From assembly GCA_017610385.1 (NCBI GenBank), contig JAFCCC010000002.1:64001-128000 (forward strand): a stretch of DNA of 64,000 nt, written 5' to 3'. The stretch comes from Candidatus Nanohalarchaeota archaeon (lineage in GTDB: Archaea > Nanohalarchaeota > Nanosalinia > Nanosalinales > JAFCCC01). Under the pieces are notes generated by a model that was not told the origin of the DNA, ran no database searches, and worked only from the letters and a program-made list of their open reading frames with translations. Position numbers and translations under genes: made by a program. Below, piece by piece: positions 30,010 to 44,106 of this stretch (within the stretch, counting starts at the first letter, position 1; each line of letters begins with the position of its first letter).

Positions 30010-31539
30010 GTGAAGGATTATTGTATGCATGGCTGTTATCCGGTTGATAGTACTTTTTTTGAAGGTTCTGGAATTGATGCTGAAAAATTTATTAAAAGCC
30101 TAAAGCTGGCTGAAGACATAAATAAAAAAGTTCTTGAAACCCTAAAGGAGCTTAAAATAACGCATATAGACGGTCTGTATTCTTATCGTGTTCTTATTAC
30201 TTTATTATCAGATGTGGTTGGCTCAGATGTTGGTGAAAGGATTTTAGATGAAATGGGAAGCACATTACACTATAAATCTGGCCTAGGAGAACCATATGTT
30301 GCAAAAGGAGATAGAACATTAGTTATTGGTGCTAAAAAACAAGGTAAGCCGATGGGCGCATATAGAACATTAGGTTCTCTGTTAGGTTTTCAATATGGAT
30401 ATCAAAGGCATAAAGTTAATGAATGGTTAAATGTAAGTCCAAGATCTCAATTTTACAATGAAATGATGGGTCGGAGAGGGGAGGCAGAACAACAAGTTAA
30501 TCGAGTTTTAGCAACGCTAAGTGATCTTTATCAACAGAAACACTTGTTAGAACATGATATTAGAAAATTAAATGAAAGGATTTCAAGTTTCAAAATATAT
30601 GACGAAAGTAAAGGGGAACGAGAAGAGGCGCTTAAAGCAGATTTTATTGATTTGGTGGATATTCAAACAGGAAGACATAGTTTGTTAACTATGCAGAGCG
30701 AAAATATTTTTCCAACTATTACTGCTGATTTTTATAGAATGAAAAAACCAGAGGATTTAAAAACTGGTGCTCCGATGGGAAATTTGCCTGAATCTGAAAA
30801 AGCCATGTTAAGAAAAAAATGGTATTTGTATGACAAATGGAAAAGTGAATACCAACAGGTGGTTGCTGGTAAAGTTAAGGATCTTGATATGCGATTAAAT
30901 TCAATTTTAACATCCATTAAACAGAATGAGGAAGGAATTAGACCATATGTCAGAACATTAGTAGAATTACGTGGTACATCTACGGAAGAGTTAGATCGTA
31001 TGACAGATCTTCAGATGATGCAAGGATATTCTTCAAGCTGGAGAGGTATGAAATTAGTATGCTACAAGGCCGTGCGTGAAAATCCGGGTGGAGGAGATTC
31101 TCATTATGATGTTTTGGTTGTTAATATAGATCATCTTACGCTTGCCAATACTGAACAGCCTGCAGCTCCTGGAGCTGGTGGTGCAGCATTGATTTTAAAA
31201 TTTAAAGAATATTTGGTTTGTAAACATGTTTTTGATTTAGCTTTTAAGCCACAAATTGATAATAAAAAGGGTGAAGTTGAAAAATTCATGGATTTATATA
31301 CGGGAAAATCACCATGGATAGATACAATTAAAAAATTAGAGCCACATTTAAAAACAGTTAAAGAATTTAAGAAATCTGCGAAACCCAGTAAATGGGCCTA
31401 CGCAATGGGAAAAGCAGATGGATTCTATGTTCGTTTAGAAGAATTAGATGATTTAAGAACGAAACTGGTTGGGCCACCACATATATCTCCTCTTTATCTA
31501 GATTTGAAATATGCAATAGGAATGTTTGTAACAAGCTAA
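30010..31539 (+). CDS. Uncharacterised large helical/coiled-coil protein
   Basis: 509 aa, GTG start after GAGGTGA; two long heptad segments; no TM. Confidence 0.8.
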   Translation: MKDYCMHGCYPVDSTFFEGSGIDAEKFIKSLKLAEDINKKVLETLKELKITHIDGLYSYRVLITLLSDVVGSDVGERILDEMGSTLHYKSGLGEPYVAKGDRTLVIGAKKQGKPMGAYRTLGSLLGFQYGYQRHKVNEWLNVSPRSQFYNEMMGRRGEAEQQVNRVLATLSDLYQQKHLLEHDIRKLNERISSFKIYDESKGEREEALKADFIDLVDIQTGRHSLLTMQSENIFPTITADFYRMKKPEDLKTGAPMGNLPESEKAMLRKKWYLYDKWKSEYQQVVAGKVKDLDMRLNSILTSIKQNEEGIRPYVRTLVELRGTSTEELDRMTDLQMMQGYSSSWRGMKLVCYKAVRENPGGGDSHYDVLVVNIDHLTLANTEQPAAPGAGGAALILKFKEYLVCKHVFDLAFKPQIDNKKGEVEKFMDLYTGKSPWIDTIKKLEPHLKTVKEFKKSAKPSKWAYAMGKADGFYVRLEELDDLRTKLVGPPHISPLYLDLKYAIGMFVTS

Positions 31540-31632: not shown

Positions 31633-33669
31633 ATGGGCTCGGTTTTGGAACAATTTCGAGAATTTCTTAGAGGAGAGCATAAATCAAAGAGACTGTATCA
31701 TTATTTGGGTTGCTCATCTGGAGCTCCAGTTTCTGATAAGATACCTGTTTTATTGGGCAGACGAGCGGGGTGGGCCACGCGGCAAGGAGCCAATTTTATA
31801 GAATTGTTTACAGGACCGCCTTCTGAGTTGATTATGGAAAAAGAAGAATTAATTAATACTGCGGCCAGATTAGGCCTTAATTATTCTATTCATCCCTCTG
31901 AGCAATTGGGCTTAGATAGTTCTTATGTCATGGCGAGAAATGGATATTTAATTGCTCAAGAATATTTACGAAAAATCATAATTTATGCGGGATTATTAAA
32001 ATTGGGGTTAATCGAGCGATTTAAAAAAGAAAGATTAAATACAGATGAAGTTCTTACTTCAATTAATATTCACATTTCAAACAAGCCAATTCCACCTTTT
32101 GCTGAAAAATTGGCGGGGGATGTTTCTCTGGATCCATTTGGAAATGATATTAGAAAAGTACGATTGAAAAATGAAAAAGGAAAAGAGATTCCTCATCCGA
32201 TTTTCTCAAATAAGTTATTCAGAGAACGACTTTGGAAACACTATATTTTACCGAATGAGGATAAACTGATATTAGTAAGATTATTGGCTGAAAAAATAGC
32301 TAGAAAGCCCTTTGAAAAAATTTTTGAGAGCTATTTTAATAATCTTTTACAAAATCAACAATTTTCAGAAGACGAAGAAAAAAATAAAGAGATTATAAAA
32401 AAAGAAATGGCATTCCCATTTGATATACGATTTAAACGCCATACAAATTTACAAACGCCCGCAGTTGAACATACCATACAAGACAAAAACATGTTTAAGG
32501 CGGTGGAGAAATCGTTTATAGAAAAAATTGATGGGATAGAAATTTTATGGGGAGGTCGTGTTGAATGTTTGAATCCAGATAAAATTCTTCAAGAATCTTT
32601 TTTGTTTAGGGAACTTTTGCCGAGATGGATGCCACACGCAAAAGAAAAACCAATTAGAGATATTTGGGAAGGAATTGTTGGTAAAAAATATAATGGTTCT
32701 GAAAAGGATGTCACTCAAGCTGAAAAAAAGCTTATAAAACTTCGTGCAGCTGTCAGAGGAGAACAAAAAATTATAGCAGCTTCAGCAGGCGCATATACTT
32801 GGGGACATCTTACTCAATACACGGATTGGGCTCCGGGAGTTCCAGAGTATGATGGAAGCAATAAAAAAAAGCCTAAAAAGGCCACATTAGCTGAGCTTTT
32901 GGCACATTTTAAAATTCAAATTACCCTAGAGTGTCATATGTCGGGGGGGTTAGGAGAAACTATACGAATTTTTGCTCCAGAGGATGTTCTAGTTATTGCA
33001 AAAGCCGTAAATGAAACTAAAAGTCCATTAACAAAAAAAACATATGATATTGCAAGAATAACCATTGACATGGAACAGATTTCAACAATGGGTGTAGATC
33101 CTATTTGGATGATGAAAGGAGATAAAGCACAAGGATTCAAAGGATTATCCATTAAAAAACAAGATGGAAAATTCATTAGAGTGGTGCACGTCACACACCC
33201 CTATATTATGATGGGTGGTTCTGGACACCAACACGGACCAATAAGAAGAGGGGATACGCAGGTATTCAAATATCTTTACCTGATGAATGAAAGAGGAATG
33301 GGAAGTCGCGAAAATGAAAAAACAATTATAATGTATGAAATTGGAACTGAAAAAGCAGAATCTGTTTTTATGATAAGATTGATGATTGAAATGATTGAAG
33401 CAGGAATAACTCCAAAAGATTTAAAAGTTGAGAACATTCAAGAGTTAATGGATAAAGAACCACGAGATTTAAAGGAGAAACTGATTCAAGAATTCTTTGG
33501 ATTGAGTGAAGCTGAAATGAGACAAGAATGGGCACAAATTCAAGAGCATACTACAGACCCGTTAAAGGGGATGTTAGGATCTACAAAACCAGATCATACT
33601 TGGACTGGAAAAGCGGCACTAGATCGAAGAAATGCTCCAGAAGAATATAAAGGAGAACAATATAAGTAA
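31633..33669 (+). CDS. Xylose-isomerase/endonuclease-IV-like TIM-barrel protein with a large helical insertion
   Basis: Strand-end ligand pattern YSIHP, INIHIS, TLECH, TIDME, VVHVTH, HQHGP, IMYEIG. Confidence 0.65.
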   Translation: MGSVLEQFREFLRGEHKSKRLYHYLGCSSGAPVSDKIPVLLGRRAGWATRQGANFIELFTGPPSELIMEKEELINTAARLGLNYSIHPSEQLGLDSSYVMARNGYLIAQEYLRKIIIYAGLLKLGLIERFKKERLNTDEVLTSINIHISNKPIPPFAEKLAGDVSLDPFGNDIRKVRLKNEKGKEIPHPIFSNKLFRERLWKHYILPNEDKLILVRLLAEKIARKPFEKIFESYFNNLLQNQQFSEDEEKNKEIIKKEMAFPFDIRFKRHTNLQTPAVEHTIQDKNMFKAVEKSFIEKIDGIEILWGGRVECLNPDKILQESFLFRELLPRWMPHAKEKPIRDIWEGIVGKKYNGSEKDVTQAEKKLIKLRAAVRGEQKIIAASAGAYTWGHLTQYTDWAPGVPEYDGSNKKKPKKATLAELLAHFKIQITLECHMSGGLGETIRIFAPEDVLVIAKAVNETKSPLTKKTYDIARITIDMEQISTMGVDPIWMMKGDKAQGFKGLSIKKQDGKFIRVVHVTHPYIMMGGSGHQHGPIRRGDTQVFKYLYLMNERGMGSRENEKTIIMYEIGTEKAESVFMIRLMIEMIEAGITPKDLKVENIQELMDKEPRDLKEKLIQEFFGLSEAEMRQEWAQIQEHTTDPLKGMLGSTKPDHTWTGKAALDRRNAPEEYKGEQYK

Positions 33670-35069: not shown

Positions 35070-35618
35070 ATGAAGAAATTCAATTTTAAAAATAAATCTC
35101 TTCAAATTAGTTCATTTCTTGCAGGACTTGCAGTTATTGCGTTGATTATAGTTTTATTGTACTCATCAACACAAACTGAGGATGTATCGAAATTAATTCT
35201 TTCTAAAAATATAGAACCTTTTGAATTAGTGGATAATTCTACATTAAATACGGCTCTTTCTTCTAATATCATATCACAAGGTATTGAAGAAATTGGAACA
35301 GGTGTTTACAATGTTAATAATGCTTTCGCAGCATATTTACAAATAACTAAATTTAATAGTCAAGAAAATGCTAAGAAATATTTTTCTGAAAAGGTAACTT
35401 TTTGGAAAGAAAAGAGTCAGAAATATGAGCAAATGAGTTTTTCTCAGGTTAAAATGACCAATAAATTAGTTTTACAAGGAATCACGAAAGGAACAAAAAC
35501 ATCAACCTATGACTACGTTTGGAGAGATAGAATTTTTATTTACGAGGTATCTGGTAAAAAATTAGACGTAAATTATCCCTTAAAACTAAGTAAATTGCTT
35601 TGGGGTGATTTTCAATGA
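35070..35618 (+). CDS. Membrane-anchored extracytoplasmic protein
   Basis: N-terminal TM then an alpha/beta domain; ATGA overlap with the vWA gene; start could also be 35031. Confidence 0.65.
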   Translation: MKKFNFKNKSLQISSFLAGLAVIALIIVLLYSSTQTEDVSKLILSKNIEPFELVDNSTLNTALSSNIISQGIEEIGTGVYNVNNAFAAYLQITKFNSQENAKKYFSEKVTFWKEKSQKYEQMSFSQVKMTNKLVLQGITKGTKTSTYDYVWRDRIFIYEVSGKKLDVNYPLKLSKLLWGDFQ

Positions 35619-37741
35619 AAGTATCAGCTTTAATGAACTTTTCAGCTTTGCTTTTACTTTGCCTTCTTGCAATTGTAAGTCTAAATCTTATTGAAAATGT
35701 ATTTGGTGCAGAGAGCTATATTACTCCCAATGGAAAATGGTTTAGTATGGACAATGTCGAATTTAAAATTGATATGGGCGGTTTGGACCCTGAAGATTAT
35801 GTTAATTATAGTTGTAACTATGAAATCATTGAAAATTCAGATGTTTGTCCTGAAAGTGAAACACAATTTATAGAATCATTGGGCAGCTCTGGAAATATAA
35901 CTTGTGACCCTGGTGCCCTATGCAATAAGGTAGTATGTTATTATTGTAAAGTTAATCGAACTAATAGAACCCGAATTCATGATCCAGAAAGCAATAAGCC
36001 GTGGAAATTCATCTGGTTTGTTGAAAATTGGACTGAAATCTACGGAATAAACAGAAGTGACCCTTTTATAATTAATATACCAAATGGCAGTATTGAGGTA
36101 ACTGTAAATAAAACATTAGAAGGAGAATTAATTCTTGGTGCGCCAGTTAATATTATTTTAACTGGGACTGTTAATTTTTTAACTCAAACGATTCCTGTCG
36201 ATGTTATGCTAATAATGGATAGGTCTGGTAGTATGTCCGGAGATAAAATAACACAATCAAAGACAGCAGCAATTATTTTTACCAATCAAATATTATCTAA
36301 AGATAGAATAGGACTAACTTCTTTTGCAAGTACTGCAACCCTAGAAGCAGGACTGACTACAAATAAAGATTTGGTAAAAACTAAAATTAATTCCTTGGTT
36401 GCTTCTGGTATGACTGCAATGGGTGATGGAATGTATGTCTCACTCAAGGAACTAGAAAATAATGCTCGTTCTGACGTACTAAAATTTGCTGTTCTATTAA
36501 CAGATGGGCATCATAATTCCGGCAGTAAAACACCTTTAGAAGAAGCACAATGGGCCAAAAATCTTAATATTTCTATATATACAATTGGATTAGGCGCGGG
36601 AGCAGATGAAAACCTATTGATTAAGATTGCTAGCGAAACCAATGGAAAATATTTCTTTTCTCCGACCGAAGAAGAATTAGGTAATATTTACCAGCAAGTT
36701 GCTCAAGATATTTATGCAAGAGCAAGTAACAATAAAATTTATGATTTTCTACCTCTTTCTGCTGAAGTAATAGATTCAGATGGCGGCACAGTTAATCAAA
36801 TTACCTTAAATGAAGAAACATATCGCATAATTGCTTGGAATCATGGTTTAATAACTCCCTTAACTCCTTTGCTTATTAATTATACTGTGGCTTTCCATGA
36901 GTTTGGAGAACAACAAATTTGCTTTGAAAATAAATCTGTTATTTCATACGCCGATGTTGATGGATCAAAACAATTCAAATATTTTCCATTGATTAATGGT
37001 TCTAAGACTGTACAAATACCATATATTGATCTTGCATTTTTAGACTTGGATGGCATAGTTAAAAAAGATTTAAGTTCTAATTTAAACTCTGTTATTTTAA
37101 ATAATGGAACTATTACGTCTATACCAACCAAAATTGCGTTTTATAATAAAAGTGCTTTGGGAAATAAGTTTGGAACAGTAGAAGTTTCTTCTTTGGTAGT
37201 AAATGCTTCAGATGAATTTACTTTTATCTGGAACATTCCAGACAATAATACCTTAAAATATGAAATTTATGGTGTTGTTGATCCTTATAATGAAATAGAA
37301 GAACCTAATGAAGATAATAACATACGAGAATTCATATTGTGGAATGATTGGACTCCACCACAAGTATTCTGTGATCAAGCATATGAACAAGAAGATGTTA
37401 ATTTGATTTTCTCTCCAAAAATCAAAGATGTGGGTGCTGGTGTTGGGCGTGTACGACTTTGTAAAGATGCTTATTGTAAAGAAGTGTTTTGCGAATATGA
37501 TGGAAATGAAACCAGTTCGTGTGTATATGCTGTTGATGAATGTACATTTGAGAATGTTGGATTTTGGATATTTGCATCAGATAAAGCATTAAATACTAAT
37601 TTAACGTATTGCGGGGATATTGAAGTTAAAAAATCACTTAATTGTGTGTGTTCTTACTCTACTGAATGTGATTCTGGTCTTTGTGAGGGGGGGCCAACAC
37701 TTTGTACAGAAAATCCCATACCACAACTATACTTTATATAA
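35615..37741 (+). CDS. Secreted vWA-domain protein with CARDB-like domain and Cys-rich C-terminal domain
   Basis: Signal peptide; intact MIDAS (DRSGS, GMTAMG, LLTDG); VDPYNEIEEPNEDNN CARDB end; ends ENPIPQLYFI. Confidence 0.88.
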   Translation: MKVSALMNFSALLLLCLLAIVSLNLIENVFGAESYITPNGKWFSMDNVEFKIDMGGLDPEDYVNYSCNYEIIENSDVCPESETQFIESLGSSGNITCDPGALCNKVVCYYCKVNRTNRTRIHDPESNKPWKFIWFVENWTEIYGINRSDPFIINIPNGSIEVTVNKTLEGELILGAPVNIILTGTVNFLTQTIPVDVMLIMDRSGSMSGDKITQSKTAAIIFTNQILSKDRIGLTSFASTATLEAGLTTNKDLVKTKINSLVASGMTAMGDGMYVSLKELENNARSDVLKFAVLLTDGHHNSGSKTPLEEAQWAKNLNISIYTIGLGAGADENLLIKIASETNGKYFFSPTEEELGNIYQQVAQDIYARASNNKIYDFLPLSAEVIDSDGGTVNQITLNEETYRIIAWNHGLITPLTPLLINYTVAFHEFGEQQICFENKSVISYADVDGSKQFKYFPLINGSKTVQIPYIDLAFLDLDGIVKKDLSSNLNSVILNNGTITSIPTKIAFYNKSALGNKFGTVEVSSLVVNASDEFTFIWNIPDNNTLKYEIYGVVDPYNEIEEPNEDNNIREFILWNDWTPPQVFCDQAYEQEDVNLIFSPKIKDVGAGVGRVRLCKDAYCKEVFCEYDGNETSSCVYAVDECTFENVGFWIFASDKALNTNLTYCGDIEVKKSLNCVCSYSTECDSGLCEGGPTLCTENPIPQLYFI

Positions 37742-37926
37742 AAAATAGAATATTTAACTCATTTAACTCATTTTAGAAGACAATATTTCTTTTAGAATAT
37801 AATGTGGGCTTGTGGTTACTGTAAACATAATTATTTGATAGTATGTCTATCTTATTTGATAATACATCTCTCTTTTTTCAAAACAGAGTAGTAAACTATA
37901 TTTATCAACAAAATCTAAATTAGGTT

Positions 37927-39534
37927 ATGAGAGAACATTTAATACTTTTATTAGTATTTTTTCTAATTGTTGGTGGAACTGTTTCTGCAGAGGAGAATAT
38001 ATTTTATAACGGAGGAATGAAAATCGAAACACAAAAAATACATTATCTTCCGGGAGAGTCTTTTGAGGGGAGTGCAATCCTATTTAATGAAGAAAATTTT
38101 CCATTAATTAGTGCATATTTGATAGTAGTTCTTCAGGAAGGATGTGAAAAACCCACTTATCCTACACAATTCTCAGATTGCGATAATATTTTTTTAGAAG
38201 ATAAAATTGAAAATATAAATTTGGGTGCAAATTCACAAAAAAGAATTGATTTTTCTTACAAATTGCCAGAAAATCTCAAACAAGGAGTTTATCGGGCGGA
38301 TTTCTATTTTAAAACAAATAGAACGCCAATAGTAGGTCTTCCATTTATTTTAAGTGGAAGCAATTATGTGAGCTTTACAATAGATGGATCCGCGCAATTC
38401 CCTTCTGTAAAAATACTAAGAACCAAAACGTATTTTAAAGGAGTAGAACGTGAATTGGGCGTTTGGAAGAATGATTCGGAATACCCTAAGTGGCCCTGGA
38501 GTGCAGGACCAGTTGGAATTCCAGTAGAATCACAAATTATTGGAAATGTTAGTATTCAAAATGAGATTTCAACCGCAACAGACAACTTAGAGCTTCTTGT
38601 TTCTGTTTATGGGTGGGATGACACCTCGTCTGAGTTAATCTCTTCAAAAAAATATAACTTTTCACTTAATCCCTCAGAACAAAAAATCATCCCAGTAGAA
38701 TTAAATGCTCCAGAAAAAGCAGGAGCATATACCATTAGATTAGAAGTTCTGCAAGACAATCAGAAACTTTCTGTTTATAAAACAAGGGTAATTGTTATTG
38801 GAGAAACTGCGAGAATAAGAAAACTTTATGTGAATAAACCTTATTTTAAGGAAAATGATGCGCTTCAAATTAATATGCTAGTTGGTACTTCGCCAGATCA
38901 TTATACAAAACCTACAATGAAGGATTTAACTGCTTCTGTAGAAGTAATAGATTTATCTACTGGTGCTCTGGTTCTTCGGAGCTCTAAAAAAATCAGTGAA
39001 CTATCTTCGGAAAACAAATTAATTTTGGTAAATTTCACAAAGAAACTCAAAAAACAATTAAGCAATTTTAAGGTTACTGGAAAAATCGTTTCTTCAAAAA
39101 AGGAAGTTTATGATGTGTATGAAATCGTAGTGAATTCTGAAAATTTCGTTTCAGGTGTGGATAATATAACAGTCGCTTTGGAAAATTATGACTCTGAAAC
39201 CAGAAATTTAACTATAAAAATCTGTACTTTTAACAAAGATCAAATACCGGTAAGTACAGAGATTCAAGCAATTTTGCGGGATGACTTGAATATCATAAAG
39301 AATCAAAAACTAAGCTGTTCTCCTTGTACATATCTAAATTTCATTGCAGAAAAACAGAATTACACATTATTTGTAAGTGCAAATAAACAACAATTTAATT
39401 TTCCAATTAGTGTACCAGAGAACTCAATTTCAACAAATGATAAAGAATCTTCAAGTTTGATTTGGGGATTAATTGGTGGGGCGGCAATTATTGTTTTAAT
39501 AAGTTTGTTCTTGCTTTGGAGAGGGAAAAAATGA
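37927..39534 (+). CDS. Secreted Ig-like multi-domain protein with C-terminal TM anchor
   Basis: Signal peptide; beta-rich repeats (PENLKQGVY, PEKAGAY); TM LIWGLIGGAAIIVLISLFLLW followed by RGKK. Confidence 0.78.
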   Translation: MREHLILLLVFFLIVGGTVSAEENIFYNGGMKIETQKIHYLPGESFEGSAILFNEENFPLISAYLIVVLQEGCEKPTYPTQFSDCDNIFLEDKIENINLGANSQKRIDFSYKLPENLKQGVYRADFYFKTNRTPIVGLPFILSGSNYVSFTIDGSAQFPSVKILRTKTYFKGVERELGVWKNDSEYPKWPWSAGPVGIPVESQIIGNVSIQNEISTATDNLELLVSVYGWDDTSSELISSKKYNFSLNPSEQKIIPVELNAPEKAGAYTIRLEVLQDNQKLSVYKTRVIVIGETARIRKLYVNKPYFKENDALQINMLVGTSPDHYTKPTMKDLTASVEVIDLSTGALVLRSSKKISELSSENKLILVNFTKKLKKQLSNFKVTGKIVSSKKEVYDVYEIVVNSENFVSGVDNITVALENYDSETRNLTIKICTFNKDQIPVSTEIQAILRDDLNIIKNQKLSCSPCTYLNFIAEKQNYTLFVSANKQQFNFPISVPENSISTNDKESSSLIWGLIGGAAIIVLISLFLLWRGKK

Positions 39535-41579
39535 AAACGTATGTGAACAGTAGGTTGTTGGTTTTTTTAATAATACTAGTTGCTATCTTCGTTGTAAAAA
39601 CTCCTTTTTCAGTTGCTAATGCTTGCGCTCCAGAACATGATTATAAAGCGTGTTCTTCTGGTGATCTCTATTGGTATGATGCATGCGGGATCAGAAATGA
39701 TCTCGCGGAATCTTGTGGTAGTGATTCGTGTGGTTCTTGGGGTTCAAATTATTGTAAATACGGAGATGTTTATCACAAAAGAACTTGTTATGATCGCGGA
39801 TGTAGTAGTGGATCCTGCTATAGTAATTCTTACACGGACGAAGATTTGGTAGAAGAATGTTATTCGAGTGAAGCTTGCATAGATGGAAAGTGTTATGTTG
39901 GGTCTGAATTCAGTTTTGTAGTAACTGTTGACGAATCTTACCCGAATTCAGCCATTCCAATTAAAGTGGCGAGCAATGTTTGGTTGGGTTCCTCTGTTGA
40001 CTTTGATTTTACATTAAATGATATTGATATTTCGAATAGAGTAGATGATGGCATTTGTACTGTTGAGGGGGATGAAGGGTGGTATATTTTAAATGTGGGA
40101 GATACGTGTGAAACCCGTGTTCCAGACAACATAGTGCCAGGAACCTATGTTTTAAAAGCAGAATGGGATTTCTTAGGTCATCATGAAAAAATATTAGATT
40201 CTGCTTTTGAGATTAAAGCAGGATATATTTGGTCTACAACAGAAAGCACTCACGGAGGTTATATAGATGGTAGCGTACTCTACAACAAAGGATTCAGTCA
40301 AAATTATGTTTTAGAAGATAATAAATATTTTACTTGCCCAGGAAATTCATTAAATATTCAATTAACAGGGACCGTCGTGACAGAATGTTCTAATGGTGCT
40401 ACATCGTCTTCAATTCCTGCATCAATAGCGTGGGTATATGAAGGAGCAACAAAAATAGGGACAAAAAATAATAATATGTTTAACGGGTGCTGTAAGATTC
40501 ATGAGGGAATAACTCGATCTGAAATCTTATTAACTCCAAAAGGATATAGACCAGAAGATTCTGGCTGCTCTTGTGATCTGGGATGGACTTTTGGTGGTTC
40601 AAGTTCTTGGCAAGCCGCCACATTTAACAATAAAGGAAATTATGCGGTTTATTTAGATTATATTGGCGCGATGTCAGACGCACCAGCAGATTTTATTTGT
40701 CCAAAGGGCGGGGCGTATTGTACTACCAACTGGGGACATAAACCTTCAGAATATTATAATTTGGCAAATTTGGAAGTTTTAGATGTTTCTGTAATTGATT
40801 TAGCAGCAGAGTTAACTGAGAATGTTCTTAACGCCGAATGGAATGGCAGTTTATGGAAATTAAACGCGAATTTTGTGGGAGATTCAATTGAGAATACATT
40901 TTTAATTGAATATTCTGTTAAAAATGTCGGTATAGGTTCTATAGAACTTACCGGAGGCAATGCACTATGTTCTGAAGAAATGAATTGTTCTGTGATTACG
41001 CCATTACCTTTAGTTGTAAAAGAAGGGGCATCTGCTACAATTTTAGTTAGTACAGATATGCCTATTAAAATTGGATTAAAAGAATTAAATTTTACAACGG
41101 AATATCAAAACGCGTATGGATTTAGTTGTGAGGTTGGAAAACACATTTCAAAGAACATCCAATTTGAATGGAAAGATGATATTCCACCGGTAATTAATTG
41201 TGAAACAGAAGATAAAAAGGGGATAACAAGCATTTTATTTAATCCAGACGTATATGATCCAGATCCGTCTTTTGGGTTTTTAGGCATTGATGTGTGTTTG
41301 GATGGAATATGCAAACAGATCGGGTGTTCAAATACCTCTACTATATGTGAAACACCTATTTCTGACTTGGAACTTGGTTGCATTTATTTGAATAAAGAAT
41401 ACTGGATTAGAGCAACGGACATTATGGGAAATTCAGACATTAAAAAGTGTGGAAATATTGAAATGAAAAAAGATTTGGATTGTATTTGTTCATACGATTC
41501 TGAATGCAATTCAGGATTGTGCGATGGAATTCCGCAAGTGTGTATGGAAAATCCAAAACCAGAAATGTACTTTATCTAA
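39531..41579 (+). CDS. Secreted Cys-rich protein sharing the C-terminal domain of the vWA protein
   Basis: Start MKTYVNS (ATGA overlap); signal peptide; Cys-rich N-terminal repeats; ends ENPKPEMYFI. Confidence 0.82.
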   Translation: MKTYVNSRLLVFLIILVAIFVVKTPFSVANACAPEHDYKACSSGDLYWYDACGIRNDLAESCGSDSCGSWGSNYCKYGDVYHKRTCYDRGCSSGSCYSNSYTDEDLVEECYSSEACIDGKCYVGSEFSFVVTVDESYPNSAIPIKVASNVWLGSSVDFDFTLNDIDISNRVDDGICTVEGDEGWYILNVGDTCETRVPDNIVPGTYVLKAEWDFLGHHEKILDSAFEIKAGYIWSTTESTHGGYIDGSVLYNKGFSQNYVLEDNKYFTCPGNSLNIQLTGTVVTECSNGATSSSIPASIAWVYEGATKIGTKNNNMFNGCCKIHEGITRSEILLTPKGYRPEDSGCSCDLGWTFGGSSSWQAATFNNKGNYAVYLDYIGAMSDAPADFICPKGGAYCTTNWGHKPSEYYNLANLEVLDVSVIDLAAELTENVLNAEWNGSLWKLNANFVGDSIENTFLIEYSVKNVGIGSIELTGGNALCSEEMNCSVITPLPLVVKEGASATILVSTDMPIKIGLKELNFTTEYQNAYGFSCEVGKHISKNIQFEWKDDIPPVINCETEDKKGITSILFNPDVYDPDPSFGFLGIDVCLDGICKQIGCSNTSTICETPISDLELGCIYLNKEYWIRATDIMGNSDIKKCGNIEMKKDLDCICSYDSECNSGLCDGIPQVCMENPKPEMYFI

Positions 41580-41698
41580 CGGAGCGTTAAAGTTAGTTTT
41601 ATAAACTAATAGGGTAATTTAAATTCAGCTCCTTCTAATTAGAGTTTAACTGCTCTTAAATTAAATTTGATAAATTAAGTAAATTAAATGTGATAAAA

Positions 41699-43498
41699 AT
41701 GAATATTAAAAAAATAGTGCCAGATACAAGCTGCATTATTAATGGAAAATTAAGTCAGTTGATCTGTGATGGAAAATTAAAAAGTGTTGAAATTATTATT
41801 CCGGAATTTGTTTTTAATGAGCTGGAAAATCAGGCAAATCATGGAAGAGAAACTGGCGATACAGGATTAGCTGAAATTAAAGAATTAAGGGAATTGGTGG
41901 AAAAAAAGAAAAATATTACAATTAGATATAAAGGACGACTTCCAACCATGGAAGAAATTAATTTGGCAAGATCTGGTAGAATCGACGCCCTAATAAGAAA
42001 AATTGCAGAAGAAGAAAAAGCTATTTTATATACTTCTGATAAAGTTCAATTTTTGGTTGCAGAAGCAAAGGGAATTGAATGTCAATATTTTCAACCAGAA
42101 CACGAAATTAAGTTTTCTCTAGAAAAATATTTTGATGAAGAAACTATGAGTATTCATTTAAAAACTGATTGTATTCCAGTTGCCAAGAAAGGCAAACCAG
42201 GCAAAATGAACTTAACGAAGATTAGTAAATCAGAATTAGACAAAGAGTATATAGAGGCATTAATCAAAGAAACAATTGAAAAGGCAAAAAGTTCTGATCA
42301 CGGACATATTGAAATGAATAAGAGAGGAGTAACTGTTTTACAAATTGAGGATTTAAGAATTGTTATTACCAAACCACCATTTTCAGATGCATCAGAAATA
42401 ACTGCTGTTCGCCCAGTTAAAAGATTTGATTTAAATTATTATCAGTTATCAGAAAAGCTAATGAGCCGTTTGGACAAAACAGCAGAGGGAATTTTAATAG
42501 CGGGATCGCCAGGACACGGAAAAAGCACATTTGCGCAGGCTTTGGCTGAACATTATCTGAAAAAGAAGAAAATCGTAAAAACAATGGAGCAGCCCAGAGA
42601 TTTGCAGGTAAGCAAAGAAATTACACAATATAGTGCCTTGGATAATTATTTTTCTAATACTGCGGACCTTTTGCTTTTGGTTAGACCAGATTATACTGTT
42701 TTTGATGAATTAAGAAAAACAAAGGATTTTGAAGTTTATGCGGATCTGCGTTTATCAGGAGTAGGTATGATTGGTGTAGTACATGCTTCGCGGGCATTAG
42801 ATGCAATTCAAAGGCTAATTGGGCGCTTAGAGTTGGGAGTTATTCCACAAGTGGTTGATACGGTTATTTTTATTGAGAATGGTGAAATAAAAAAAGTATT
42901 CAAAATGTCATTAACAGTCAAGGTTCCAGAAGGAATGACTCAAGCAGATTTGGCTCGTCCAGTTATACTTGTCAAGGACTTTGAAACTGAGAAAGTAGAG
43001 TATGAAATTTATACTTTTGGGGAAGAAACTATGGTTATTCCTGTTTCTGAAACCAAGAAATCAGGAAGAGATCGATTTGCAATAGACTATTTAGAAGATT
43101 ACCTATCTAAATACGTGAGAGATCCAGAAGTTGAATTTCTTTCGGAAAATCATGTGAAAGTTTTGGCAGAAGAAAGTGAAATTCCATATATTATTGGAAA
43201 GGGTGGAGCTAAAATTAATAGAATAGAAAAAAAACTTGGTTTACGTATTTCTATTGAACCAAAGTCAAATACATTAAAAAAGAAAAAGGCCTACATTTTA
43301 GAAGAAGTTGGGAATTCTTTGGTTTTGATTGTTGGCCAAGAACATTCTGGTAAGGTTGCTGATGTGTACAATGATAAAGACTTTTTATTTTCAGCTACAA
43401 TTGGAAAGAATGGCCAGATTAGAATAACAAAGGATTTTGAGCTTTCAAGAAGGGTTTTAGGGGCGTATTCAGCTCAGAGATTGAATATTTATTTCTAA
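41699..43498 (+). CDS. PIN-domain ATPase with KH domain (PINA-type)
   Basis: VPDTS PIN, GSPGHGKSTFAQALA Walker A, RPDYTVFDELR, KH IIGKGG. Confidence 0.92.
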   Translation: MNIKKIVPDTSCIINGKLSQLICDGKLKSVEIIIPEFVFNELENQANHGRETGDTGLAEIKELRELVEKKKNITIRYKGRLPTMEEINLARSGRIDALIRKIAEEEKAILYTSDKVQFLVAEAKGIECQYFQPEHEIKFSLEKYFDEETMSIHLKTDCIPVAKKGKPGKMNLTKISKSELDKEYIEALIKETIEKAKSSDHGHIEMNKRGVTVLQIEDLRIVITKPPFSDASEITAVRPVKRFDLNYYQLSEKLMSRLDKTAEGILIAGSPGHGKSTFAQALAEHYLKKKKIVKTMEQPRDLQVSKEITQYSALDNYFSNTADLLLLVRPDYTVFDELRKTKDFEVYADLRLSGVGMIGVVHASRALDAIQRLIGRLELGVIPQVVDTVIFIENGEIKKVFKMSLTVKVPEGMTQADLARPVILVKDFETEKVEYEIYTFGEETMVIPVSETKKSGRDRFAIDYLEDYLSKYVRDPEVEFLSENHVKVLAEESEIPYIIGKGGAKINRIEKKLGLRISIEPKSNTLKKKKAYILEEVGNSLVLIVGQEHSGKVADVYNDKDFLFSATIGKNGQIRITKDFELSRRVLGAYSAQRLNIYF

Positions 43499-44106
43499 AT
43501 GTTTCGCGCTTGAAATTCACAATATTCATCGCCTTTGGCCGAGCATTTTGTTTCTATTACATTCCAATATGTGTTTGTATAATCTTCTAAAATTCCTTGA
43601 AAAAAACCACTCATGAAGTAACAAATAGTTCTATTTTGCCTTATGTTTTTTGAAAAAATATTGTCTATAAGCACAAAATCTATGGAAGACTGATCAAACT
43701 TCTTGATTCGTATTTTTCCTGCGTTCCATTTTTCAATCAGATTATTAATCTCTAAAATATACCTTCTAAAATCTATTTCTTGAACGGTCTTTCCTATTTG
43801 TAATCCCAAATTTTTTCCAGCACTATGCAGAACAGTTTTGCCTGCAAATGTATCTAAAACATCTAAATTTAATTTAGAAAGTGCCTTTGAGTTGACTAAC
43901 AACTCTTTGTTTTTTTCTAAATCAAAGGTCATTTGATCAATCAAAACAGAGCGCATTTTGTTAAAAACTTCTTTTTTAATTGGAAATGTGTGATCTGAAA
44001 GAGATGTTGTGTTATAAACATATTGAGCAAATTTTTTTGGTGCTATTTCTAAAATAGAATATTCAAAGGCCTGTCTGAAAAGCAAATTTACGTCAGTCAT
44101 TTCCAT
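43495..44106 (-). CDS. V4R domain protein
   Basis: WNAGKI..., CYFMSGFFQG, ETKCSAKGDEYCEF. Confidence 0.85.
   Translation of the reverse strand: MEMTDVNLLFRQAFEYSILEIAPKKFAQYVYNTTSLSDHTFPIKKEVFNKMRSVLIDQMTFDLEKNKELLVNSKALSKLNLDVLDTFAGKTVLHSAGKNLGLQIGKTVQEIDFRRYILEINNLIEKWNAGKIRIKKFDQSSIDFVLIDNIFSKNIRQNRTICYFMSGFFQGILEDYTNTYWNVIETKCSAKGDEYCEFQARNI

Follow-up and report, generated by a model that had tools for sequence, protein, structure and literature searches.

Donor-strand complementation is well known in the chaperone-usher and type V pili. The type V pilins are bacterial lipoproteins that lose strand A to a protease and assemble into head-to-tail polymers. DPANN archaea live attached to host cells; to our knowledge, little is understood of the way in which they hold and exchange their surface adhesins. 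Another complementation system, the WxL/Elr pilus of Enterococcus faecalis, is confined to Bacillota according to its authors, as stated in the portion of their preprint on which we draw (10.64898/2026.10.17.759780). Here, we analyzed a cluster of four genes (A, B, C, and D; positions 35070-41579, all in the same direction) in the genome of a Candidatus Nanohalarchaeota archaeon (G000; 788 kb, 93.5% complete; the other G numbers denote related genomes). Positions without a contig prefix refer to the window, namely the whole stretch of 64,000 nucleotides that was analyzed (G000:C11:64001-128000). An earlier note on this DNA had pointed to a Cys-rich C-terminal domain shared by the products of B and D, and had suggested that its terminal strand docks interchangeable adhesin heads onto an anchor or acts as a sorting signal.

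Combining sequence, comparative, and predicted-structure evidence, we propose with a probability of roughly 0.6 that the B and D proteins dock on a stub, which is encoded at an unlinked locus, by strand complementation in trans. B and D would be secreted, adhesin-like heads, B with a von Willebrand factor A (vWA) domain bearing a metal ion-dependent adhesion site (MIDAS) and D with a Cys-rich body, and each would carry the same docking module at the C-terminus. The last residues of the module, hereafter the tail, would represent strand A, the first beta-strand of a CARDB-like immunoglobulin (Ig) domain, detached from the remainder of that domain, which is encoded as a stub of 165 amino acids (aa). 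After export, the tail would insert antiparallel to strand B of the stub and complete the sandwich, and the completed sandwich would tether interchangeable heads to the membrane.

Gene B (35615..37741, plus strand) encodes 708 aa comprising a signal peptide, a Cys-containing N-terminal region, a VWA domain (36200..36697; residues 196-361), a CARDB Ig-like domain (37073..37327; residues 487-571), and the docking module (37334..37738; residues 574-708). The VWA domain matched PF00092 with an E value of 1.2e-25 (91.2 bits against a cut-off of 23.8), and the DxSxS motif of the MIDAS is present as DRSGS at residue 202, while the later Thr/Asp positions were assigned only by eye. Gene D (39531..41579, plus strand; 682 aa from the ATG at 39531) encodes a signal peptide, 37 Cys residues, and the docking module (41163..41576; residues 545-682); no Pfam or NCBIfam family matched D, of which an orthologue was found in G001 (E 2e-110). 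In line with the earlier note, B and D share only their C-terminal ~135 aa: BLASTP recovered a single significant segment (B 576-708 and D 547-682; 50 of 139 positions identical, 36%; E 8e-27) and all other segments had E values of 0.84 or greater. Its description of both proteins as bearing a signal peptide and no transmembrane (TM) anchor also held, as a Kyte-Doolittle scan detected one hydrophobic segment in each, at the N-terminus (residues 1-32 in B and 1-33 in D), and none elsewhere. The modules terminate in the tails TENPIPQLYFI in B (37706..37738; residues 698-708), the predicted donor strand pairing with strand B of the stub, and MENPKPEMYFI in D (41544..41576; residues 672-682). The C-termini, ...LYFI and ...MYFI, comprise no hydrophobic segment, and the tripartite PGF-CTERM/archaeosortase signal (motif, TM helix, and basic tail) was absent from both proteins. 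B and D carry the only two copies of the module in the assembled G000, and likewise the only knot and tail (see below). A weak match to the sandwich part of the module (G000:C8:69726-69980; E about 1e-3) was noticed within a 4835-aa open reading frame (ORF).

An alignment of 16 rows of the module (A1, in which positions 125-135 correspond to the tail) was used for structure prediction. In the AlphaFold2 (AF2) model of the module alone, with a predicted local distance difference test score (pLDDT) of 93.5, residues 3-101 form an FN3/PKD-like beta-sandwich followed by a small, Cys-rich (disulfide) knot. The sandwich retains its own first strand, and the tail residues 125-135 are unpaired coil. 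The invariant columns of A1 include three Cys residues of the knot and P130 in the tail. The module matched no family in Pfam or NCBIfam, and sequence searches of PDB chains with A1 and with A3, the alignment of the stand-alone stubs, gave nothing below an E value of 0.027. Foldseek and VIA-align retrieved generic FN3, PKD, and Ig folds only (best Z 9.6), and in word-index searches with single sequences the stub and residues 574-708 of B each matched only themselves.

The A1 profile searched against 1.84 billion representative proteins yielded 1173 matches at E <= 1e-3, 215 at E <= 1e-10, and 32 at E <= 1e-30. One class of the matches comprised giant proteins in which only the sandwich part is present, repeated 5-25 times in tandem, so that this part is regarded as a common stalk repeat. 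Among the 150 best of the 1173 matches and the window's own proteins, 61 proteins possessed the whole module, and in 47 of them, with B, D, and a second copy of D among these, no more than 9 aa separate the module from the C-terminus. Ten proteins extend 135-151 aa further, one has 26 aa past the module, and the remaining three are other Cys-repeat proteins. The stop lies 11-13 aa after the last Cys in 38 of the 46 distinct terminal proteins (11 aa in B and D), and the tail pattern P-x(1,2)-h-x-h-x(0,3)-end, in which h is a hydrophobic residue, fits 41 of the 46, B and D included. The N-terminal parts of 55 module proteins were scanned for known families at E <= 1e-5, and the payloads appeared to be diverse: Big_13 was found in eight proteins, Laminin_G_3 in five, PKD in four, Big_7 in three, beta-helix/NosD in two, and VWA with CARDB in one (P0066), while no family was detected in 24 of the 45 proteins without a long extension (44 terminal proteins scanned plus P0051). 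P0066, with its VWA, CARDB, and module in 790 aa, resembles B, and resides on the same contigs (about 480 kb) as the module-bearing P0133 of 1781 aa; a second small genome therefore has at least two terminal heads.

The proteins in which the module is not terminal are the key to our interpretation. In nine of the ten extended proteins, as well as in the relatives G020 and G028, a second Ig-like domain comes after the module, ending in xPGL/APxL, a TM helix, and basic residues, and in G008 and G014 the knot and tail are fused to the anchor. The segment equivalent to the tail in these fused forms (IPPSVSFT, VPPDVKFT, and similar) leads directly into the next domain. In the AF2 model of the naturally fused G020 protein (alignment A4; pLDDT 94.8), the tail-equivalent residues 127-132 form a beta-strand, and the next strands, 139-144 and 147-156, belong to the second domain. 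Since the tail of the fused forms is that strand, the end of the terminal proteins coincides exactly with the end of strand A of a domain they lack. The earlier note had expected a strictly terminal position and counted internal occurrence of the domain against its own proposal. The domain is in fact internal in about 10 of the 61 module proteins and in four related genomes (as knot and tail in G008 and G014); formally this is the finding that the note had set against docking, yet the internal cases do not refute docking because they reveal its likely mechanism.

A hidden Markov model (HMM) of the extension was searched against all ORFs of G000 and detected the missing domain in two places outside the window. 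The stub (G000:C5:7040-7537; 165 aa; E 2.7e-17) matches the model only from position 16 onward, that is, without strand A, and in the alignment its signal peptide occupies the place of strand A in the fused forms. The likely mature N-terminus, TDYITLKV as read by eye, aligns with the A' strand, and the C-terminus consists of APDLNW, a TM helix (residues 139-164), and KIWKK. No NCBIfam model (including the CTERM models) or Pfam family matched the stub. The A3 profile retrieved nine small proteins, of which the named ones are annotated as 'hypothetical protein [Candidatus Nanohaloarchaea archaeon]', and an atlas look-up, taken as a lead only, found a resemblance to small DPANN hypothetical proteins. 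The second place is a fused form (G000:C18:9688-11265; minus strand, 5' open) ending in Ig-like repeats and the fused anchor domain. On C5, the stub gene is located about 500 bp upstream of an ORF open at its 3' end (G000:C5:8038-8445), which is the start of a Gly-rich surface protein (beta-helix-like by eye); C5 and C18 probably join here, and the gene left open on C5 would continue in the C18 ORF as its 3' part. Two ORFs of G000 matched Exosortase_EpsH (PF09721) above the cut-off, C11:58620-58982, about 5 kb before the start of the window, and C13:27105-27554 (163 and 197 aa, respectively). Judged from these matches, they are possible archaeosortases for the APDLNW/xPGL anchors, and the anchor of the stub may be processed by such an enzyme.

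We co-folded the B module (with A1) and residues 24-138 of the stub (with A3, containing stand-alone stubs only), so that neither alignment contained a fused anchor domain. The three values of the interaction prediction score from aligned errors (ipSAE) were 0.75, 0.77, and 0.77, against 0.00 for the best of three controls. These values pass a mark that 58 of 80 solved complexes attained, compared with 2 of 110 mismatched pairs; these counts hold only roughly here because the score was calibrated with other alignments. The runs share at least 95% of the contacts, and the pLDDT of the partners is 84 or greater. The predicted interface comprises L116, E118, and the tail (T125-I135) on the head side, and D25, R37-M48 (strand B), and residues 106-121 on the stub side. 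The predicted register is antiparallel (132-40, 131-42, and 134-37/39), in agreement with a strand A that lies next to strand B.

The distribution of the module and the stub was surveyed within the phylum, in a collection of 70 genomes that all belong to one order. The module was present in the families f1, f2, f3, and f5, while none of the 50 genomes of f4 possessed the full module at E <= 1e-10; with one exception, the f4 matches extend no further than about model position 105 and are located in ORFs of 240-9433 aa. We found terminal heads in 11 genomes (G000, G001, G002, G004, G005, G007, G016, G017, G022, G023, and G025), and a stand-alone ORF of the size of the stub (160-230 aa, with the match starting at model position 12-24) was found in all 11. 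We inspected the sequences of 13 stub ORFs in relatives, covering 9 of the 10 head-bearing relatives (the stub of G017 was taken from the HMM table alone); all 13 possess a signal-like N-terminus and 11 possess a TM anchor. In G020 and G028 (g15), in which the heads are fused to the anchor, the search with the extension HMM detected no stand-alone stub. In the tree of 27 anchor domains, the stub and fused forms are interleaved in the nanohaloarchaeal clade, although many forks are unresolved. By eye and without statistics, the tails of genus g3 are acidic (e.g., PEIEFLE) and the B strands of the g3 stubs are basic (e.g., FFIKVR); G001 does not fit this charge match.

Several observations weigh against docking in trans, besides the rough calibration noted above. 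The ipSAE value is the confidence of a model and not a measurement, all of the evidence is in silico, and the co-folding covered one pair only, namely the B module and the stub. The language model may recall fused homologues, in which case the pass could show the likeness to a fused domain but not binding in trans. Because strand A lies at the edge of the sheet, a domain without it could well be stable and require no donor. The stubs of G016 and G013 lack a TM anchor, and may be soluble or otherwise attached variants; these two homologues (L034, C2 and L035, C11, respectively) end in ...LRRLLGMG and ...LKRLLGIG. Stub-like ORFs were detected in six genomes in which no terminal head was found (G008, G010, G013, G014, G019, and G026; 72-93% complete), and a small Ig protein with an anchor occurs in the head-less G036 (f4). 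The co-occurrence of heads and stubs follows the phylogeny (f1, f2, f3, and f5 versus f4), and the genomes are thus not independent of each other. Finally, the stub and head genes were never adjacent in the loci examined.

The earlier note had placed the anchor within the cluster itself, with the heads docking on the products of the adjacent, translationally coupled genes A and C. Its observation on coupling is correct: the ATGA overlaps, read directly from the sequence, are located at 35615-35618 (A/B) and 39531-39534 (C/D), and both upstream genes encode membrane proteins. Gene A (35070..35618, plus strand; 182 aa) has a single N-terminal TM helix (residues 9-36) and a stop overlapping the start of B, whereas gene C (37927..39534, plus strand; 535 aa) encodes a multi-Ig protein with an N-terminal signal-like segment and a C-terminal TM helix (residues 507-534) in a Kyte-Doolittle scan, which would suit an anchor. 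In an atlas look-up, again used as a lead only, C resembled CARDB/NPCBM_assoc multi-Ig DPANN proteins, and its match to WxLIP_PGBD was below the threshold (21.9 bits against a cut-off of 27.3). The C-D pair is furthermore conserved in the complete genome of G012 (f4; L063/L067, C1:1096508-1105000). However, A matched no Pfam or NCBIfam family and has no homologue in 60 relatives, C has homologues in only 2 of the 60 (G012 and G036), both of which lack the full module, and no homologue of A or C was found in 11 head-bearing loci of nine relatives, several of which lie on very short contigs. In G012, moreover, the C homologue is overlap-coupled to a 661-aa D homologue that ends just before the position of the module. 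As that D homologue is still coupled to C, we regard the C-D pair as conserved independently of the module, which is an add-on; any contact between C and D thus does not need the module. The product of the third gene of the unit in G012 is an anchored Ig protein (435 aa) in which a signal peptide, Ig repeats, an anchor domain, and a TPGIGLL-TM end were recognized, and V4R-domain-like genes (by eye) are located upstream of this three-gene unit. With the natural fusions indicating the unlinked 165-aa stub on C5, we consider docking on A and C quite improbable. What stands of the original proposal is a terminal strand that would dock interchangeable heads, given the portable cassette on unrelated heads and the predicted strand complementation; A and C are not supported as its anchor.

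Three other explanations of the module were weighed against docking on the stub. The module may simply be the end of a stalk or spacer and the tail a leftover linker, with B and D released or held by glycans or the S-layer and the stub unrelated to them. The giant proteins with tandem repeats of the Ig part, the generic FN3/PKD fold, and the stub-like ORFs in genomes without a detected terminal head are consistent with this idea, which we nevertheless regard as unlikely: a leftover linker does not fit a stop fixed so tightly to the knot (38 of 46), a tail that is unpaired in the head alone yet a strand of the next domain in the fused forms, a stub that begins exactly after the tail-equivalent strand, and a complex that passes while its controls do not. 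Alternatively, the tail could be a C-terminal sorting or processing signal for an enzyme that cleaves or covalently attaches the protein. A strictly C-terminal, short, and conserved motif and the two archaeosortase-like genes of G000 argue for a signal, whereas the heads lack a TM helix and a basic tail and, in the fused proteins, this segment forms an ordinary internal strand. A TM helix and a basic tail are common to all known signals of exosortases, archaeosortases, sortases, and rhombosortases, as stated in the abstract of 10.1101/2023.06.07.544157, and we judge the sorting signal to be improbable. The heads could also polymerise as a donor-strand fibre, in line with the adhesive filament in the earlier note and with the donor-strand filaments of archaea (see the threads and cannulae below). 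The heads provide a donor strand, but the sandwich of the module keeps its own first strand in the AF2 model and no acceptor groove is evident. The heads are of many unrelated architectures, and the only domain lacking a strand is that of the stub, whose C-terminus is a membrane anchor. A pilus-like fibre of the heads is thus highly improbable.

The genes flanking the cluster are unrelated to it and encode a nucleotidyltransferase, a PIN-ATPase-KH protein, and a V4R protein. Directly 3' of D, the gene at 41690-43498 encodes a 602-aa protein with PIN, P-loop ATPase (T2SSE-like), and KH domains, which is probably an RNA/NTPase housekeeping protein outside the surface cluster; the V4R gene is located at 43495-44106. 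Just upstream of the cluster, the products of 31633-33669 and 30010-31539 (678 and 509 aa, respectively) had no Pfam match at E <= 1e-3. Contig C5, on which the stub resides, carries ORFs that are PCNA-, eIF2alpha-, and ribosomal-protein-like by eye.

Returning to docking on the stub, we infer that the heads bind the stub on cells and mediate attachment to the host. A more general form of the proposal, to which we give about even odds, is a plug-and-socket display in the DPANN archaea of the Nanohaloarchaeota type, in which one Ig domain is split between two genes. The stub without strand A would be a universal socket in the membrane, and the 11-residue tail behind the disulfide knot would be the plug on many unrelated heads (lectin-like, vWA, beta-helix, PKD, and Cys-rich), such that a cell with a minimal genome could use one anchor for swapping or mixing its heads for host attachment, while lineages shift between the fused and split states. 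If true, there would be a concrete attachment joint made of an 11-residue tail and a 165-aa stub, and the unannotated C-terminal module common to many secreted and seemingly 'anchorless' surface proteins of DPANN archaea would be explained. Being small and self-contained, the pair could also be used as a natural tag for protein ligation or display.

Among the known systems, the type V pili (FimA/Mfa1) are similar in that a C-terminal strand fills the place of the absent N-terminal strand A in the Ig-like/pilin domain of the partner, which is here a prediction only (ipSAE 0.77). They differ from the present system, in which the acceptor is made without the strand and has a signal peptide in its place, carries a C-terminal membrane anchor, appears to dock 1:1, and belongs to an archaeon. 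B and D possess ordinary signal peptides and the first strand of their own sandwich, no pilin family was found in Pfam or NCBIfam, and the fold and PDB searches detected no sequence relation or specific fold relation between the type V pilins and the module. The parallel to type V pili drawn in the earlier note is thus retained as a predicted likeness in mechanism, that is, an analogy and not a membership. As described in the part of the preprint cited at the outset (10.64898/2026.10.17.759780), the WxL/Elr pilus shares with the present system an incomplete Ig-like domain that is complemented, a membrane-anchored component (ElrE), and tip adhesins combining an invariant attachment module with a variable payload. 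Its own features in the same source are N-terminal donor strands, WxL domains, a membrane-anchored chaperone that is later displaced, the ElrD polymer, and anchoring by sortase; here, Pfam reported no WxL or usher family at E <= 1 and the fold searches gave generic Ig domains only. The Sulfolobus threads (PMC9715654) and the Pyrodictium cannulae (PMC12518558) are reported as archaeal and chaperone-free cases of extracellular donor-strand complementation, but both are homopolymeric filaments, whereas we propose a head-to-anchor joint with many heads.

The stub and the fused forms resemble the substrates of PGF-CTERM/archaeosortase A in ending with a short motif (APDLNW or xPGL), a TM helix, and basic residues; on the other hand, such a signal is absent from B and D and the stub matches none of the NCBIfam CTERM models. 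Cohesin and dockerin also place variable secreted parts on a common anchor via a conserved joint. The same likeness applies to two-component S-layers such as SlaA/SlaB (PMC10903991). Here, the joint would be a single beta-sandwich split over two polypeptides, as opposed to a pair of folded domains that bind each other. In our literature search, in which most papers were represented by their titles or abstracts, none described such a docking system. Compared with the known cases of complementation, the apparent differences are an Ig domain split between a head and an anchored stub, a C-terminal donor, an N-terminal missing strand, a 1:1 joint without a polymer, and many payloads. If our proposal is true, strand complementation, by which the systems compared here (pili, threads, and cannulae) polymerise, would in these archaea serve the 1:1 tethering of modular payloads to the membrane.

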